A stretch of 27,574 nt of DNA from Myxococcota bacterium (GTDB taxonomy: Bacteria > Myxococcota_A > UBA9042 > JABWCM01): contig CAVOCR010000001.1 in the NCBI GenBank assembly GCA_963694245.1, forward strand, positions 1 to 27,574, given 5' to 3'. Positions 1 through 6,209 of this stretch are shown here, piece after piece. Each line of letters starts with the position of its first letter. Positions within the stretch are counted from its first letter, which is position 1. The notes beneath the pieces were generated by a model that was not told the DNA's origin, did no database searches, and saw only the letters and a program-made list of their open reading frames with translations. The translations under genes were made by a program, and so were the position numbers.

Positions 1-570
1 GCCCGCTGGATCCAGGGCAGAGCAGGGCTCGTCCATGAGCAGCACGGTGGGTTTGACGGGCAAGAGGCGTGCGATGCAGAGCTTCTGCTGTTCTTCCAGT
101 GAGAGTCCAATGGCCTCATCGTTCAGGCGATCCTTGACCTTGTCCCAGAGAAGCACTGTCTTCAGTGATTCTTCGACGACGGCGTCTTCCGCCGCTCGAT
201 TCAGCCGCGACTCCCGGCTGGTATGAATTCGGAGACCAAAGAGCACATTGTCCCGAATGGAGAGCGGGAGTGGATTGGGACGTTGGAAGACCATTCCGAT
301 TTGCTTCCGTACCTGAATCAGTTCGACGTCGGGGCCGAAGATGTCGTGGCCGAGAACGCCGATCTTTCCCGTGGTGCGGACATATCCGAGTCGCTCCACG
401 ATGCGGTTGATGCTCCGAAGAAACGTGGATTTTCCGCAGCCGGAGGGGCCGATCATGCTCGTGATCATGCCTTGGCGAATCTTCAGATTCACGTCGAAAA
501 GCGCCTGGAAATCGCCGTACCAGAGGTTCAAGTTCTCGGTTTCGATGGCGTATGAGGGGTTCTCAGCCAA
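1..570 (-). CDS. pstB: Phosphate ABC transporter ATPase PstB, copy 2 (runs off the window edge; not in the ORF track)
   Basis: Manual translation from TTG at 570 (GGAGG upstream, overlaps the upstream pstB stop): MAENPSYAIETENLNLWYGDFQALFDVNLK...GPSGCGKST...GMVFQRPNPLP...LWDKVKDRL...LSLEEQQKLCIAR...LLMDEPCSALDPAG. No stop before position 1. Confidence 0.93.
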   Translation of the reverse strand, partial: MAENPSYAIETENLNLWYGDFQALFDVNLKIRQGMITSMIGPSGCGKSTFLRSINRIVERLGYVRTTGKIGVLGHDIFGPDVELIQVRKQIGMVFQRPNPLPLSIRDNVLFGLRIHTSRESRLNRAAEDAVVEESLKTVLLWDKVKDRLNDEAIGLSLEEQQKLCIARLLPVKPTVLLMDEPCSALDPAG

Positions 571-1369
571 AAGCTCCCTCCAGATATTGCAGGGTCTTCT
601 CGTTCTGCACATCGCCCGCGAAGAGTGCGTCGGTGTCTCCCACCTCGACACAGCGTCCTTTGAGGAAGAATGCGGTCCGATCGGCCAGTCGCCGCGCCTG
701 CTGGGTCAGGTTCGTGACCAGCACGATGGTCATTTCCTTCTTCAATTCCTTGAGGACGTCCTCGATCTTCATGGTCGTGACGGGATCCACGGCGATGGAG
801 AACTCGTCCAGGAGGAGGAGGTCGGGCTCTTGTGAGAGCGCACGTGCGATGGTGAGTCGTTGTTGTTGACCCCCCGACAGGAGGCTCCCGAGGGCCTTCA
901 ACCGATCCTTCACTTCATCCCATAGCGCGGCTCGGCGCAGGCATCTTTCCACGATTTCATCGAGTTCATTTCGCCGGGATACGCCTCGGAGCCGTGGGGC
1001 GAGCGCGACATTGTCATAGACGCTCAGGGGCAGTCCCACAGGAAGGGGGAACACCACGCCGATTCGCCGCCGAAGGGCGAAGAGGTTCTTCCACTCCCGG
1101 ATGTCGCGTCCATCGTATTCCACGTTGCCCGTGTAGTGCATGTTTTCCGTGAAGGTGTCCATGCGGTTGAGGACACGTAGAAACGAGGTCTTTCCGCTGT
1201 TTGCGGGTCCAATGATGCCGAAGATTTCATTCTTGCGGACTTCCAGATCCACTCCCGAGAGCGCCGTGAAATTATCGTAGTGAACCGCGAGCCTCCGCAC
1301 CTTCAATTTGTCGGGCGGGTCCGCTTTCTGAGGCGATTGGCTCTTCTGGATGGGGCGGGAATCTACCAT
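563..1369 (-). CDS. pstB: Phosphate ABC transporter ATPase PstB, copy 1 (degenerate Q-loop and H-switch)
   Basis: Walker A GPANSGKTS, LWDEVKDRL, LSGGQQQRLTIAR, LLLLDE. Start moved to ATG 1369 (MVDSRP), which overlaps the pstA stop; 268 aa. Confidence 0.93.
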   Translation of the reverse strand: MVDSRPIQKSQSPQKADPPDKLKVRRLAVHYDNFTALSGVDLEVRKNEIFGIIGPANSGKTSFLRVLNRMDTFTENMHYTGNVEYDGRDIREWKNLFALRRRIGVVFPLPVGLPLSVYDNVALAPRLRGVSRRNELDEIVERCLRRAALWDEVKDRLKALGSLLSGGQQQRLTIARALSQEPDLLLLDEFSIAVDPVTTMKIEDVLKELKKEMTIVLVTNLTQQARRLADRTAFFLKGRCVEVGDTDALFAGDVQNEKTLQYLEGAFG

Positions 1370-2232
1370 TTCTTCTTTCCTCTCAGGTAGACGCGAAATG
1401 CGATGGAGACCGAGTTCATCGCCAATACGATTCCGATCAGGACGAGAGCGACTCCGAAGGGAAGCTCCGGCGGGACATCGGGGACCTGCGTCGCCACCAC
1501 GAACAGATGGAGCGAGAGCGCCATGGTCTGGTCGAATACGCCTTCGGGGAGGAAGGGCAGGAAGAATGCAGCGCCCGTGAACATGATGGGGGCTGTTTCG
1601 CCAGCGGTTCTGGAGACCTCCAGGATGATTCCGGTCAGGATGCCGCTGATGGCGTTGGGGAGAACGACCTGGCGAATGGTCTGCCACCGGGTCGCTCCCA
1701 TGTTCCAGCATGCCTCCCGAAAGGACATGGGGACGGCTTGCAGGGATTCGCGGGTGGCGACGATCACCACGGGGAGGGTCATCACGGCCAGGGTCAGGCT
1801 CGCTGCGAGAATGCTGGTTCCGAACTCGAAGAAGAGAACGAACGCTCCGACTCCGAAGAGCGCATGCACGATCGAAGGGACGCCAGCGAGGTTGATGATG
1901 GCGAGATTGATGAGTCGTGTGAACCAGTTGTCCGGTGCATATTCACTGAGGTAGAGGGCCGCCGCGATCCCGACGGGGACGGACGCGATCAGGGCGACAA
2001 TCACCAGCGCAACCGTTCCCATCAGCGCTGGGAAGATTCCACCGGCGGTCATTCCTTGAATGGGATCCTCGGTCAGGAAGGCCCAGCTGATGGCGGGTCC
2101 CCCCTTGATGACGAGCACCGACAGGATCACGATCACGGGAACAATGAGCATCAGGGCCATGGAGAGATACAGCACCCGCATCCCGCGTTCGATGCGTTTG
2201 TTTCTCTGATTGAGTGGGCTGGCTTCGAACAT
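1363..2232 (-). CDS. pstA: Phosphate ABC transporter permease PstA
   Basis: Multi-TM; AGVPSIVHALFG, REACWNMGATRWQTI (EAA-loop equivalent), GETAP; operon position. Confidence 0.95.
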   Translation of the reverse strand: MFEASPLNQRNKRIERGMRVLYLSMALMLIVPVIVILSVLVIKGGPAISWAFLTEDPIQGMTAGGIFPALMGTVALVIVALIASVPVGIAAALYLSEYAPDNWFTRLINLAIINLAGVPSIVHALFGVGAFVLFFEFGTSILAASLTLAVMTLPVVIVATRESLQAVPMSFREACWNMGATRWQTIRQVVLPNAISGILTGIILEVSRTAGETAPIMFTGAAFFLPFLPEGVFDQTMALSLHLFVVATQVPDVPPELPFGVALVLIGIVLAMNSVSIAFRVYLRGKKKW

Positions 2233-2234
2233 GA

Positions 2235-3215
2235 TTACTTCTTTCGAATCCCCCGAATGACAAGGTCAGCGCTCAGGTTGATGACGAACGTCACGATGAA
2301 GAGCAGAATTCCGAGAGTGAAGAGCGCCTGATAGTGATCCGAACCGACCGCAGTCTCTCCGAGTTCCGCTGCGATGGTCGCGGTCAGTGCACGCACGGAG
2401 TCGAACACGCCGTCGGGTACATTGATGGAGTGCCCGCTCGCCATCAGGACAGCCATCGTCTCTCCGAATCCTCGTCCCACACCCAGGAGAACGGCGGCCA
2501 TCAATCCTTGTTTTGCTGCGGGAAGAACGACTTTCCAGGCGATCTGCCATCGGGTGGCCCCGAGGGCCTCGGCTGCCTCGCGGTAGTGATCGGGAACGGC
2601 CTTCAGGGCATCTTCGGCGATGGTGGTCATGATGGGAGCCGCCATCAATCCCAGGATGATTCCAGCGTTGAGGACCGTCAGCCCGATGGGCACGTCAAAC
2701 ATCTCGATGATGAGTGGATTCATGATGACGAGTCCGATGAATCCCCAGACCACCGAGGGAATGGCCGCGAGGAGCTCAATCATGATCTTGAGTCCTTCCC
2801 GGTAGCGACCTTCTGCGAACTCGGAGATGTAAATCGCCGAGCCGAGAGAGAAGGGAATGGCGGTCAGGACAGCCAGGCCGGTCACGCTGGCGGTTCCGAC
2901 GATCAGGGCAAACGCTCCGTACGTCGGATTGGAATCGGAGGTCGGTCGCCATGCAGGCGACAGGAAGAACTCCTTCAGGTTCATCGCGCCCCCGATGAAC
3001 TCGAATCCCTCCCGTGTGATGAACACGAAGATTCCGATGATGAAGAGAACCGCCGAGACGCCCCCGACGAACACCAGTCCCGCCACACCCTTGTCGATGT
3101 ACCAGTGCAGATCCCTTCGATCCCCCGTGTGAATCGAATTCGCGGCATCCGTGGATGGCGTGGAGCCCTGGATGTCAGTCGTCGAGGGTTCCACAGAGTT
3201 TCTCCATGAGGTCAT
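2235..3215 (-). CDS. pstC: Phosphate ABC transporter permease PstC
   Basis: AAIPSVVWG, REAAEALGATRWQ, GRGFGETMAV, TATIA motifs. The true start may be GTG at 3194 (GGAG upstream). Confidence 0.95.
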   Translation of the reverse strand: MTSWRNSVEPSTTDIQGSTPSTDAANSIHTGDRRDLHWYIDKGVAGLVFVGGVSAVLFIIGIFVFITREGFEFIGGAMNLKEFFLSPAWRPTSDSNPTYGAFALIVGTASVTGLAVLTAIPFSLGSAIYISEFAEGRYREGLKIMIELLAAIPSVVWGFIGLVIMNPLIIEMFDVPIGLTVLNAGIILGLMAAPIMTTIAEDALKAVPDHYREAAEALGATRWQIAWKVVLPAAKQGLMAAVLLGVGRGFGETMAVLMASGHSINVPDGVFDSVRALTATIAAELGETAVGSDHYQALFTLGILLFIVTFVINLSADLVIRGIRKK

Positions 3216-4245
3216 TGACGTGTGACGTCAGTTCGCGAACACATGTGTCGAGGCTCTCGTCGTTGTCGTGGTCGGGCACGGCCACATCCCATCTCTGGAG
3301 GATCGTGTGGTACGCGACTTCGTGGAGTTTCTCCGAGTCTGCTGAATTGATGGTGACGACCAGGTGATATTCGATGGGACTCTCATCGAGACCGGAGACG
3401 AGGCTGGGTCGCGCCCGTCGGAGCTCGAGGCCGAATCGGTCCGCGGTGGGGAGAAGCTTCGGATGGAGTTCTTCGCTGGGTGTCCAGCCCGCACTGGAGA
3501 ACACGCCTCGTTTCGAGAATCCCTTCCATGCGATTCCTTCCGCGAGATGGGAGAGGAGATCATTCTGGTCGTCGAGGAAGAGGATTCGAAACACCTTGGA
3601 CTTCTTGGCCTCACCGGTGACCGCGAAGATGGTCTCTTCACAGATGTTCTTGGACTGGTCGCTGAAACGATCCAGCTTCGCAAAGATCGTCATGAGGGAA
3701 GCCAACTCCAGACGCGGACGTCTCGGGTTTTCTTCAATCAGGGATTGAAAGAGCTGGTCGTAGGCGATGGCAATTCGTTTGCCCATGCGTCGGGTGGTAT
3801 GGGCCATCTCGACGTTTCCCTCGAGAAACGCGCGCATCGCATCGCGCAGCATGTTGTGCGATGCCTCTGCCAGCTGGGCGATCTCACCCACGATCTTTTT
3901 GTCGAGGGGGGTGTTGAGCTGCAGAACCACCCGGCTGATGGTGACGGCGTAGTCTCCAGCGCGCTCCAGGCCGATGGTCATTCGAAGCGTGGAGGAGATG
4001 AACCGCAAATGTCCCGCGGCGGGGAGGTGACGTGCAACGAATGCATGGCAGAGAGCATCGATCTTTCGGATTTTCCGGTTGATCTCCAGATCGCCAAGGA
4101 CCACTTCGTAGAGCAGGTCCCGGTCTTCCTGTCGGATCGCCCGGATGGCAAGCTTGAGGGCCTTGCTGACGTCATCCGTGACCGCCCGCAACTCCCCCCG
4201 AATGCTCTCCAGATCCGCCGATAGACGCTCTTCGTACAATGACAT
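3175..4245 (-). CDS. phoU: PhoU fused to a C-terminal LMW-PTP/ArsC-like domain lacking catalytic residues
   Basis: N-terminal ~215 aa with two PhoU repeats (LERAGDYA, LDRFSDQSKNICE). C-terminal ~140 aa follows the LMWP motif order (RILFLDDQNDLLSHLAEG, SAGWTP, HLVVTI, RWDVAVP). ATG 4245 has GAGG upstream. Confidence 0.88.
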   Translation of the reverse strand: MSLYEERLSADLESIRGELRAVTDDVSKALKLAIRAIRQEDRDLLYEVVLGDLEINRKIRKIDALCHAFVARHLPAAGHLRFISSTLRMTIGLERAGDYAVTISRVVLQLNTPLDKKIVGEIAQLAEASHNMLRDAMRAFLEGNVEMAHTTRRMGKRIAIAYDQLFQSLIEENPRRPRLELASLMTIFAKLDRFSDQSKNICEETIFAVTGEAKKSKVFRILFLDDQNDLLSHLAEGIAWKGFSKRGVFSSAGWTPSEELHPKLLPTADRFGLELRRARPSLVSGLDESPIEYHLVVTINSADSEKLHEVAYHTILQRWDVAVPDHDNDESLDTCVRELTSHVNDLMEKLCGTLDD

Positions 4246-4272
4246 GTGCACCTCTGCCCGCTGGGCGTTTGA

Positions 4273-5175
4273 TTATTTGCAGGCCATCTCGCGAATGGGG
4301 GCATAGCCCTTTTTGCTAATGATGCACTGACCCGTATCGCTCATGATCCAGTCCATGTACGCCTTGATGACGCCTTTGGGCTCGCCGCTGGTGTACATGA
4401 GAAGGGGGCGGGCGATGGGATAGGTATTGTCGCTGGCGGTCTGGGGGGTTGGATGCACACAGGTGCCGCCATCCTCCTGCTTCACGCAGGGCATCTTCAC
4501 ATGATCGTTGGTGTACGCGAGTCCGCTGTAGCCGATGGCGCACGCGGTCTTCTCGACCAGCTCGACGACATCCTTTGATCCATGCATGTCTCTTGAACCC
4601 AGCTTGTACTCGCCTTTCTTTCCGAGTATCGCCTTCTTGAAGTATGCGTAGGTTCCGGAGTTGTTTTGACGGCTTATGCGGATGATCTCATCACTCGGAC
4701 ATCCCGGCACGGTAACGCCGAGCTGACTCCATTTTTCCACTGTGCTGCCTTCTCCGTACACCGCTTTGAGTTGAGCGGTGCTGACCTCGTTCATGGGGTT
4801 GTTCTTGTGGAGGAACACGGCGATGGCGTCGTAGCCGACGATGTGCTCCACGGGTGTGACTCCGTTCTTTTCGGCGAGGGCGATTTCCTTCGCTTTCATT
4901 CTGCGACTTGAGTTGGCGATGTCGACGGTGCCGTTGATCATGGAGGAGATTCCAGTACCGGATCCTCCGCCCGTCACCGCGATGGCGACATTGGATTCAA
5001 TCTTGGCGTAGTTCTCCGCCCAGGCCTGAGCCACGTTGACGAGAGTATCGGAACCCTTGTTCTGGATGACGACGCGCTTTGATCCGCTGGCATTGGTGGC
5101 GGATCTCTTTCCCCCCCCACATCCCAGGGCGAGAAGACTCACGGTCATGACGGTGTACATGAAAAAACGATTCAT
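4273..5175 (-). CDS. pstS: Phosphate-binding lipoprotein PstS
   Basis: Lipobox LALGC; KGSDT, GGGSGTG, ANSSR, SRQNNSGT, YPIARPL motifs of the PstS family. Confidence 0.95.
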   Translation of the reverse strand: MNRFFMYTVMTVSLLALGCGGGKRSATNASGSKRVVIQNKGSDTLVNVAQAWAENYAKIESNVAIAVTGGGSGTGISSMINGTVDIANSSRRMKAKEIALAEKNGVTPVEHIVGYDAIAVFLHKNNPMNEVSTAQLKAVYGEGSTVEKWSQLGVTVPGCPSDEIIRISRQNNSGTYAYFKKAILGKKGEYKLGSRDMHGSKDVVELVEKTACAIGYSGLAYTNDHVKMPCVKQEDGGTCVHPTPQTASDNTYPIARPLLMYTSGEPKGVIKAYMDWIMSDTGQCIISKKGYAPIREMACK

Positions 5176-5266: not shown

Positions 5267-5311
5267 CTTTTAGTCCTCAATTGTGACAGTTGTGTGTCAG
5301 CGGATTGACGA
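5267..5311 (-). promoter_or_regulatory. Pho box and -10 element for the pstS operon
   Basis: Minus strand CTGACAC-ACAA-CTGTCAC (5300-5283) is an 11-bp-phased direct repeat like CTGTCAT-N4-CTGTCAY. TAAAAG (5272-5267) lies 10 bp downstream, and a weak third half-site TCGTCAA (5311-5305) is in phase. Confidence 0.75.
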
Positions 5312-5431: not shown

Positions 5432-5501
5432 GATTGGGGAGCAGCAGAGCGTCGGATACGTCCTGGAAATGGGGTGTGGAAGGATTCAAGGAGCTATCAG
5501 A

Positions 5502-6209
5502 GTGAGTGGACTCATCCTGGTGATTGAAGATGAAGCGGATCTCCTGGAGTCGGTGGTGTATCGACTTCAGCAGGAGGGGTTTCAAACGCGTGCCGCCTTG
5601 AATGGAGCGGATGGGGTGCACCAGGCCGGAATCCAACCCGTTCCAGATCTCGTGCTCCTGGATCTCATGTTGCCCGACATGGGGGGAATGGAGGTTTTCC
5701 GCCGACTTCGAGCCGAAGAGGCCACACGCCATGTTCCGGTCATCATTGTCAGCGCACGAGGAGAGGAGGTCGATCGCATCGTCGGATTCGAGCTGGGCGC
5801 AGACGACTATGTGGTGAAGCCCTACAGTCCGAGAGAACTCATGTTGCGGATACGGGCTGTTCTACGCCGGGGGAGTCAGGAGATCACACCTGGCGATGAA
5901 CTCGTGAAGTTTGGGTGCCTTTCGCTCGATGGGCTGGGGCATCGAGTCTGGGTCTCCGAGGATGAGGTCGCCCTGACAGCGCTCGAATTTCGGCTTCTCT
6001 CCACGATGATGGAGAGAAAGGGACGTGTGCAGACCCGTGAGAGGCTCCTGGATGATGTATGGGGATACGACGTCCACGTGACCTCTCGAACCGTCGACAC
6101 CCACATCAAGCGATTGCGTGAGAAACTGGGAGACGCGGGGCGATACATTGAGACCCTTCGCGGCGTTGGATACCGGTTCCGTGACAAGCCCGATGAGCAG
6201 TCCGGATGA
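5502..6209 (+). CDS. phoB: OmpR-family response regulator PhoB
   Basis: Receiver (LVIEDE, LLDLMLP, ADDYVVKP) plus winged helix (RTVDTHIKRLREKL, TLRGVGY). GTG 5502 follows AAGGAG; divergent from pstS. Confidence 0.92.
   Translation: MSGLILVIEDEADLLESVVYRLQQEGFQTRAALNGADGVHQAGIQPVPDLVLLDLMLPDMGGMEVFRRLRAEEATRHVPVIIVSARGEEVDRIVGFELGADDYVVKPYSPRELMLRIRAVLRRGSQEITPGDELVKFGCLSLDGLGHRVWVSEDEVALTALEFRLLSTMMERKGRVQTRERLLDDVWGYDVHVTSRTVDTHIKRLREKLGDAGRYIETLRGVGYRFRDKPDEQSG

Follow-up and report, generated by a model that had tools for sequence, protein, structure and literature searches.

Background

The Pst system, the textbook importer of phosphate at high affinity, also provides the input for Pho-regulon signalling, and to our knowledge it is always drawn with two identical ATPases. 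Here we describe a pst operon with two diverged and adjacent ATPase genes, pstB1 and pstB2, which lie at the very beginning of contig CAVOCR010000001.1 in a Myxococcota metagenome-assembled genome (MAG; GCA_963694245.1, 62% complete, 538 contigs). The analysed stretch, referred to below as the window, covers 27,574 nucleotides from base 1 of the contig onward. The two encoded proteins have lost complementary sets of catalytic motifs, and we put at roughly 0.8 the probability that they form an obligate heterodimeric ATPase on the PstC-PstA channel, in which one ATP site would be hydrolytic and the other degenerate.

The closest described system is E. coli PstSCAB (PDB 9k3s, 9k3x, 9k3y; PMC12976172), with which the locus shares pstS, pstC, pstA and phoU, the architecture of a type I importer with EAA coupling loops, and nucleotide-binding domains (NBDs) without a regulatory domain. 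However, E. coli has one pstB gene and two identical consensus sites, whereas here two diverged genes carry complementary losses. Two adjacent pstB genes after pstA are also found in Firmicutes, and PstBA-PstBB of B. subtilis has been modelled as a heterodimer (PMC11466899). Both Firmicutes copies are nevertheless canonical, with no degenerate site (E. faecalis, PMC12096839), and an equivalence of the present pair with this tandem type was rejected on motifs and identity.

Dimers of the ATP-binding cassette (ABC) superfamily with one degenerate site have been described among heterodimeric exporters, including TM287/288, TAP1/2, CFTR and ABCC proteins, PatAB and BmrCD, and the degenerate site of TM287/288 retains nucleotide and maintains contact between the NBDs (PMC3971661). 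A first-pass annotation of this DNA, made by a model from the sequence, had pointed to exporters as the place where such designs are known; this is correct, but they are not confined to exporters, as one of the two ATP sites is also degenerate in the fused-NBD importers RbsA and NupO (PMC11466899). The latter carry both NBDs on one polypeptide, have lost the Walker A Lys in the dead half, and belong to a different importer class, unrelated to Pst. Exporters and the Pst pair are alike in that alteration of one NBD's core and of the other's signature yields a single non-catalytic composite site, which for Pst is a prediction from sequence. They differ in that the exporters are type IV proteins with NBDs fused to membrane domains, many of them with a replaced Walker B Glu, whereas PstB1 and PstB2 are free NBDs of 26-30 kDa belonging to a type I importer, in which the Walker B Glu is kept and the Q-loop Gln and switch His are lost. 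No fusion of an NBD to a six-helix exporter domain was found here; the likeness to the exporters is in how the pair works, and the Pst pair is no member of that family. A full-text literature search, with most subscription journals outside its coverage, returned no description of complementary degeneracy in PstB.

Complementary motif losses in PstB1 and PstB2

The pstB1 gene (563..1369, minus strand) encodes the degenerate-core subunit of 268 aa, whose best PDB match is E. coli PstB (9k3x, E = 8e-58, 40% identity). The consensus-core subunit is encoded by pstB2 (1..570, minus strand), of which the contig end leaves the first 190 codons. TIGR00972, the NCBIfam PstB equivalog, is the top family for both proteins, although both score under its curated cut-off of 343.2 bits (282.1 bits for PstB1, and 228.6 bits on 178 of 248 positions for the clipped PstB2). 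Full-length orthologues reach 272-290 bits (PstB1) and 306-323 bits (PstB2), compared with 345-404 bits for the canonical PstB of related genomes.

All motifs listed by the first-pass annotation were found at the coordinates it gave. PstB1 has an intact LSGGQ signature (866-880) and keeps Asp-Glu in its Walker B/D-loop segment LLLLDEFSIAVD (785-820), but its Q-loop, VVFPLP, has Pro108 in place of Gln (1046-1048) and its switch, LVTN, has Asn220 in place of His (710-712). The Walker A motif GPANSGKTS (1184-1210), counted among the defects, is indeed atypical; it still fits GxxxxGK[ST], however, and is a variant rather than a broken motif. In a residue-by-residue HMMER alignment with E. coli PstB (9k3x), Pro108 lines up with the Q-loop Gln, Asn220 with the switch His210, and Glu189 with the catalytic Glu179, whose mutation in E. 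coli served to trap ATP (PMC12976172). PstB2 shows the reverse picture: Walker A (GPSGCGKST, 424-450), Q-loop (MVFQRP, 277-294) and Walker B/D-loop (LLMDEPCSALD, 10-42) are canonical, and the signature, LSLEE (91-105), is degenerate. Neither subunit has the full catalytic motif set, PstB1 being without the Q-loop Gln and the switch His, and PstB2 without the Gly-Gly of the signature. The PstB2 switch was expected to lie outside the window, and it does, being also beyond the contig; in full-length orthologues it reads VTHNM[A/S/G]QA in 75 of 75, so the possibility raised in the first-pass annotation that PstB2 had lost its His as well is not borne out.

The changes are predicted to meet in one composite site

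A fixed-difference scan covered 81 PstB1, 75 PstB2, 117 type II PstB1' (members of a sister pair described below) and 38 canonical PstB sequences (E. coli, 12 relatives of the window genome and 25 cluster representatives), and listed the columns that are fixed in canonical PstB and fixed to another residue in PstB1 or PstB2 (E. coli numbering). The PstB1 changes fall in Walker A (S45A, S50T), in the Q-loop and coupling-helix groove (Q98P, P102G, F103L), just past the catalytic Glu and in the D-loop (P180F, S182I), and in the switch (H210N, M212V), with C163T and A169S in addition. Those of PstB2 fall in the signature and its helix (G156L, G157E, R161K), the remainder being A137V, A169P, Q213A and T222C.

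According to the composite-site rule stated for PstB (PMC12976172), by which the core motifs of one subunit work with the signature of the other, the core changes of PstB1 and the signature changes of PstB2 would meet in one site, and the other site would be assembled from untouched motifs. By the same rule each homodimer would hold two crippled sites, and the mixed pair alone would have a perfect one. At the motif level the locus shows the pattern of one consensus and one degenerate site, with the core of one NBD and the signature of the other altered. The earlier statement that all visible defects fall on one composite site is nearly true, the exception being the D-loop change of PstB1 (SALD to IAVD), which faces the consensus site.

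Conservation, distribution and selection

A scan of one genome per species gave at least 594 matching stretches, of which the best 80 loci were kept, so that the counts reported here do not amount to a census. PstB1 has thousands of homologues at 70-86% identity, and the changed positions are invariant in 16 of them picked from several phyla. The Q-loop Pro, the switch Asn, the signature LSGGQQQRL and the Walker B/D-loop DEFSIA[V/I]D are present in 81 of 81 PstB1 sequences. Wherever the contig of one of the 80 loci extends far enough, the gene immediately downstream of pstB1 is pstB2. The PstB2 proteins of these loci combine canonical Walker A, Q-loop (GMVFQRPNPLP in 76) and Walker B motifs with a signature that reads L[S/Q]LE[E/Q]QQKL or close to it (L.LE/L.LA..QQKL). 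With the substitutions fixed in 81/81 PstB1 and ~75/77 PstB2, the motif pattern is far beyond chance. The association of the Gln-to-Pro and His-to-Asn changes with a degenerate PstB2 signature, which the first-pass annotation had proposed to look for in related genomes, thus holds in 80 loci and always in the company of the DEFSIA[VI]D and L[S/Q]LE[E/Q]QQKL motifs. The two proteins are 38-40% identical to each other, and each is 40-49% identical to canonical PstB.

The 80 loci span more than 10 phyla, among them Myxococcota, Planctomycetota, Gemmatimonadota, Acidobacteriota, Pseudomonadota (including Accumulibacter and Thiodiazotropha), Poribacteria, Verrucomicrobiota, Rhodothermota, Binatota, Nitrospirales and others. 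In four of five complete chromosomes, including that of Saltatorellus ferox Poly30, the pair is the sole PstB-family match and must therefore suffice for the job alone; a canonical PstB was also looked for in the window's own genome, and none was found in the 62% that is assembled. The distribution is patchy: in a set of 40 genomes related to that of the window, a lone canonical PstB is found in 15 and the pair in just one, and most relatives of the same class carry the single canonical form. Nearly the same pst operon, with 95% identity in PstB1, is present in MAGs whose labels put them in different phyla, Longimicrobiales and Binatia (L031 versus L041; also L054, L056, L059 and L082), which points to horizontal transfer of the asymmetric operon.

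Both pstB genes are under purifying selection. Across 21 close locus pairs, which are few and not mutually independent, the median dN/dS was 0.13 for PstB1 and 0.09 for PstB2, compared with 0.065 for PstA, 0.061 for PstC and 0.15 for PstS. Pairwise identities of PstB1 and PstB2 are correlated (r = 0.86 over 2775 locus pairs), with nearly equal means (64.4% and 65.7%). Together, the low dN/dS and the matched identities indicate that neither gene is decaying and that both are inherited together, and the earlier suggestion of selection rather than decay is upheld, relaxed selection not being borne out. We conclude that the asymmetric PstB pair is an ancient, widespread and selected variant of the Pst importer.

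A sister pair and a single origin of the asymmetry

A profile search of 1.84 billion cluster representatives revealed a second degenerate type, hereafter type II, as opposed to the type I pair of the window and the 80 loci. Type II PstB1' has the Walker A motif GPAGSGKTS, an Ala for the Gln of the Q-loop (MVFATPQPLP, 120/120) and an Asn for the His of the switch (VTNN, 120/120), and keeps both LSGGQQQRL and a canonical D-loop, DEPCSGLDP. The sole motif change in its partner PstB2' is that of the second signature Gly to Glu (LTSEQ, LSGEQ, LSAEQ; LS[G/A/S]EQQQRL). Such pairs follow pstA in Sorangium sp. So ce260 and in Polyangiaceae and Gemmatimonadaceae MAGs (L112:6001-7566, L113:6001-7594 and L114:6001-7559), with an ordinary PhoU after the pair in two of these three loci (L112 and L113).

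The type II pair resembles type I in its tandem position, in the loss of Gln and His from PstB1' and in the Gly-to-Glu change of the PstB2' signature. Unlike type I, it keeps DEPCSGLDP and QQQRL; what type I has beyond type II is P180F, S182I, G156L and R161K, and usually a PhoU fusion (see below). In a careful maximum-likelihood tree, with which quick trees agree, PstB1 and PstB1' form one clade (ultrafast bootstrap 99, SH-aLRT 97), and PstB2, PstB2' and two signature-degenerate representatives form the other (98/99). These two paired clades indicate a single origin of the asymmetry, in which one copy lost Gln and His and the other exchanged Gly for Glu. Type I is further derived, with long stems (~1.0-1.4 changes per site) and short conserved crowns. 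The tree was built from non-Firmicutes sequences, and its root within PstB, set by two distant ABC outgroups, is insecure.

Operon layout and accessory features

The gene order on the minus strand is pstS, phoU-fusion, pstC, pstA, pstB1, pstB2, which places the PstB pair in one operon with pstS, pstC and pstA, and the same context is found in the 80 loci. The periplasmic phosphate-binding protein is encoded by pstS (4273..5175, minus strand; PBP_like_2, 1.3e-37), and the importer permeases by pstC (2235..3215, minus strand; its start was placed 7 codons later by the gene caller on an identical contig) and pstA (1363..2232, minus strand), both matching BPD_transp_1. A phoB-type response regulator gene (5469..6209, plus strand; Response_reg and Trans_reg_C) diverges from the operon and is followed by a PhoR-type histidine kinase gene (HisKA and HATPase_c). 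The pstS/phoB intergenic region contains the element CTGACAC ACAA CTGTCAC (5283..5300, minus strand), read directly from the sequence, whose two 7-nt units are spaced by 11 bp and lie ~110 nt upstream of the pstS ATG; it is a Pho-box-like candidate that resembles the E. coli consensus by eye. The pstB1 ATG overlaps the pstA stop codon by 7 nt, and the pstB1 stop overlaps by 8 nt a TTG at 570 that is preceded by GGAGG and is most likely the pstB2 start. These overlapping stop and start codons give the pstA/pstB1/pstB2 boundaries a layout that fits coupled, equimolar (1:1) translation.

The C-terminus of pstB2 was sought among the contig-end fragments of the same genome and was not found; the two candidates (C507 and C326) were ruled out by their LSGGQRQRV and LSGGERQRV signatures, being members of other ABC families. 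Two other public assemblies, in which an identical PstB1 runs on into pstB2, also stop inside that gene. The three interruptions (window position 1 in this MAG, an ENA contig of 37 kb and a Logan contig; L012:7369 and L013:3973) end within ~25 bases of each other, which suggests a branch of the assembly graph in the conserved 3' part of pstB2, caused for example by co-occurring strains.

Between pstS and pstC, the window encodes a 358-aa protein (3175..4251, minus strand) in which PhoU is fused to a C-terminal arsenate-reductase fold of the low-molecular-weight protein tyrosine phosphatase (LMW-PTP) type. Pfam finds PhoU and a weak LMWPc match (E = 0.019), and in a Foldseek search the AF2 model (pLDDT 91.8) matched PhoU (4q25, TMt 0.92) and two LMW-PTP-type arsenate reductases, pI258 ArsC (1lk0, TMt 0.89) and 3rh0 (TMt 0.85). 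In its P-loop, FLDDQNDLLS, the catalytic Cys and Arg are replaced, and the ArsC-like domain is, to all appearances, catalytically dead. At least 51 of the 80 type I loci have the full-length fusion, which one subclade carries between pstS and pstC and the other upstream of pstS.

PstA is unusual as well. Its EAA (coupling) loop, REACWNMG in the window, takes the form REACWNMGATRWQTI in at least 90% of type I loci, as against RE.A.ALG in canonical PstA, and the PstC loop (REAAEALG in the window) is canonical. The groove of PstB1 beside its Q-loop is invariant (PLPVGLP). The altered PstA loop suggests that PstB1 may dock on PstA.

A third PstB-like gene was observed in Poribacteria, ~1 kb downstream of the pair and beside a plain phoU (L069:6497-7348, L071:6580-7434, L076:6490-7350, L078:6554-7402, L080:6551-7354 and L088:6483-7280). 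It is degenerate on both faces, with Arg or Pro for the Q-loop Gln, a signature of LS[T/I/N]GQQQ[L/R]L and Asn for the switch His (TNKRRQA), and is possibly a purely regulatory PstB. A still more eroded copy of it is found at L089:5402-6286.

Proposed mechanism and alternative explanations

We propose that PstB1 and PstB2 pair as the two halves of the ATPase on the PstC-PstA channel. The consensus site, made up of Walker A, Q-loop, Walker B and switch His of PstB2 and the intact LSGGQ of PstB1, would hydrolyse ATP and drive phosphate import, probably at one ATP per cycle. The degenerate site, comprising Walker A and B, the Pro-containing Q-loop and the Asn switch of PstB1 together with the PstB2 signature that has Leu-Glu for Gly-Gly, would probably bind nucleotide, hydrolyse it poorly or not at all, and either hold the two subunits in lasting contact or serve as an allosteric site between them. 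Loss of the switch His or of the Q-loop Gln, or a charge at the second signature Gly, each cripples hydrolysis, and by these general ABC rules the degenerate site is expected to be slow or inactive. Selection seems to act on nucleotide binding, as opposed to hydrolysis, since PstB1 retains the A-loop aromatic in 81/81 sequences (78 Tyr, 3 Phe) and the Walker A Lys and Thr/Ser (GK[T/S]) and Walker B Asp-Glu in all of them. E. coli PstB is without a regulatory domain that could hold the resting dimer together (PMC12976172), and here a permanently occupied degenerate site could supply the resting-state contact between the NBDs, as described for TM287/288 (PMC3971661). Heterodimerisation, the inactivity of the second site, its nucleotide occupancy and any regulatory role are what we infer from the motifs and their conservation.

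Several points weigh against this proposal. The PstB2 of the window is without its C-terminal third, including the switch His, as the assembly itself ends there. The catalytic Glu, which many degenerate exporter sites lack, is retained in PstB1, so that slow residual hydrolysis at the degenerate site is possible, and the consensus site may not behave exactly like that of E. coli, given the D-loop change in PstB1. Selection was estimated from the small, interdependent set of locus pairs noted above. In addition, the tandem PstB copies of E. faecalis have non-overlapping functions (PMC12096839), and two pstB genes need not mean one heterodimer.

It could be that the two proteins do not pair at all, and that PstB2 homodimers power transport while PstB1 acts as an accessory or regulatory pseudo-ATPase, for example as a partner of PhoU or PhoR. 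According to work cited in PMC12976172, E. coli PhoU contacts PstB and PhoR; the operon has its unusual PhoU fusion, the doubly degenerate Poribacteria gene beside a plain phoU looks like a pure regulator, and PstB1 and PstB2 of E. faecalis have separate roles (PMC12096839). However, both sites of a PstB2 homodimer would contain Leu-Glu where the signature normally has Gly-Gly. A comparable signature change in CFTR, G551D, is strongly inactivating. Furthermore, the perfect LSGGQQQRL of 81/81 PstB1 sequences is hard to explain unless it completes the site of another subunit, and the invariant PLPVGLP groove and co-modified PstA coupling loop suggest that PstB1 docks on the membrane part. We consider such a division of labour improbable.

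It is even harder to believe that each protein forms homodimers of its own for use in different transporter states or conditions, an arrangement proposed for the tandem pstB genes of Firmicutes. The distinct phenotypes of the E. faecalis genes would be a precedent (PMC12096839), but those copies are fully canonical and 60% identical, compared with 38-40% here, where each homodimer would be left without a complete site; translational coupling and a single pstCA set also argue for one complex. Finally, although a 62%-complete MAG in 538 contigs with the pair touching a contig end invites the suspicion of an assembly artefact, or of decay of a redundant duplicate (pseudogenisation), decay or relaxed selection is rejected by a dN/dS of ~0.1 and equal divergence, and this whole explanation is effectively refuted by the intact frames, a PstB1 protein identical in three independent assemblies, the thousands of close homologues and the invariance of the changed residues themselves across phyla.

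Within the heterodimer model, a more speculative extension, which we regard as rather unlikely, is that the degenerate site is more than a passive hinge and forms, with the co-inherited PhoU-ArsC-like fusion, a sensing module in the cytoplasm. Import would then be gated, and phosphate status reported to PhoR, by what occupies the PstB1 site (ATP, ADP or some other ligand) and by the binding of oxyanions to the PhoU fusion, and the REACWNMG loop would fix PstB1 on PstA, making the transporter structurally polar. If true, such a module would equip the importer with its own brake and sensor, for which the symmetric E. coli system has no counterpart.

Implications

One-dead-site ABC dimers (in exporters, RbsA and NupO) and canonical tandem pstB genes (in Firmicutes) were already known. 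What is new here is the type II sister pair, the single origin, the sole-PstB status in complete genomes, the map of fixed differences, the figures for divergence rates and dN/dS, and the link with the PhoU fusion. For annotation, it is of consequence that PstB1 and PstB2 fall under the NCBIfam PstB threshold and are nevertheless named as ordinary PstB. As separable subunits, they offer a clean system for asking what degenerate ABC sites do. The long fixation of an asymmetric Pst across many phyla, including the phosphate-accumulating Accumulibacter, implies that in nature a type I importer can manage with a single hydrolytic site.

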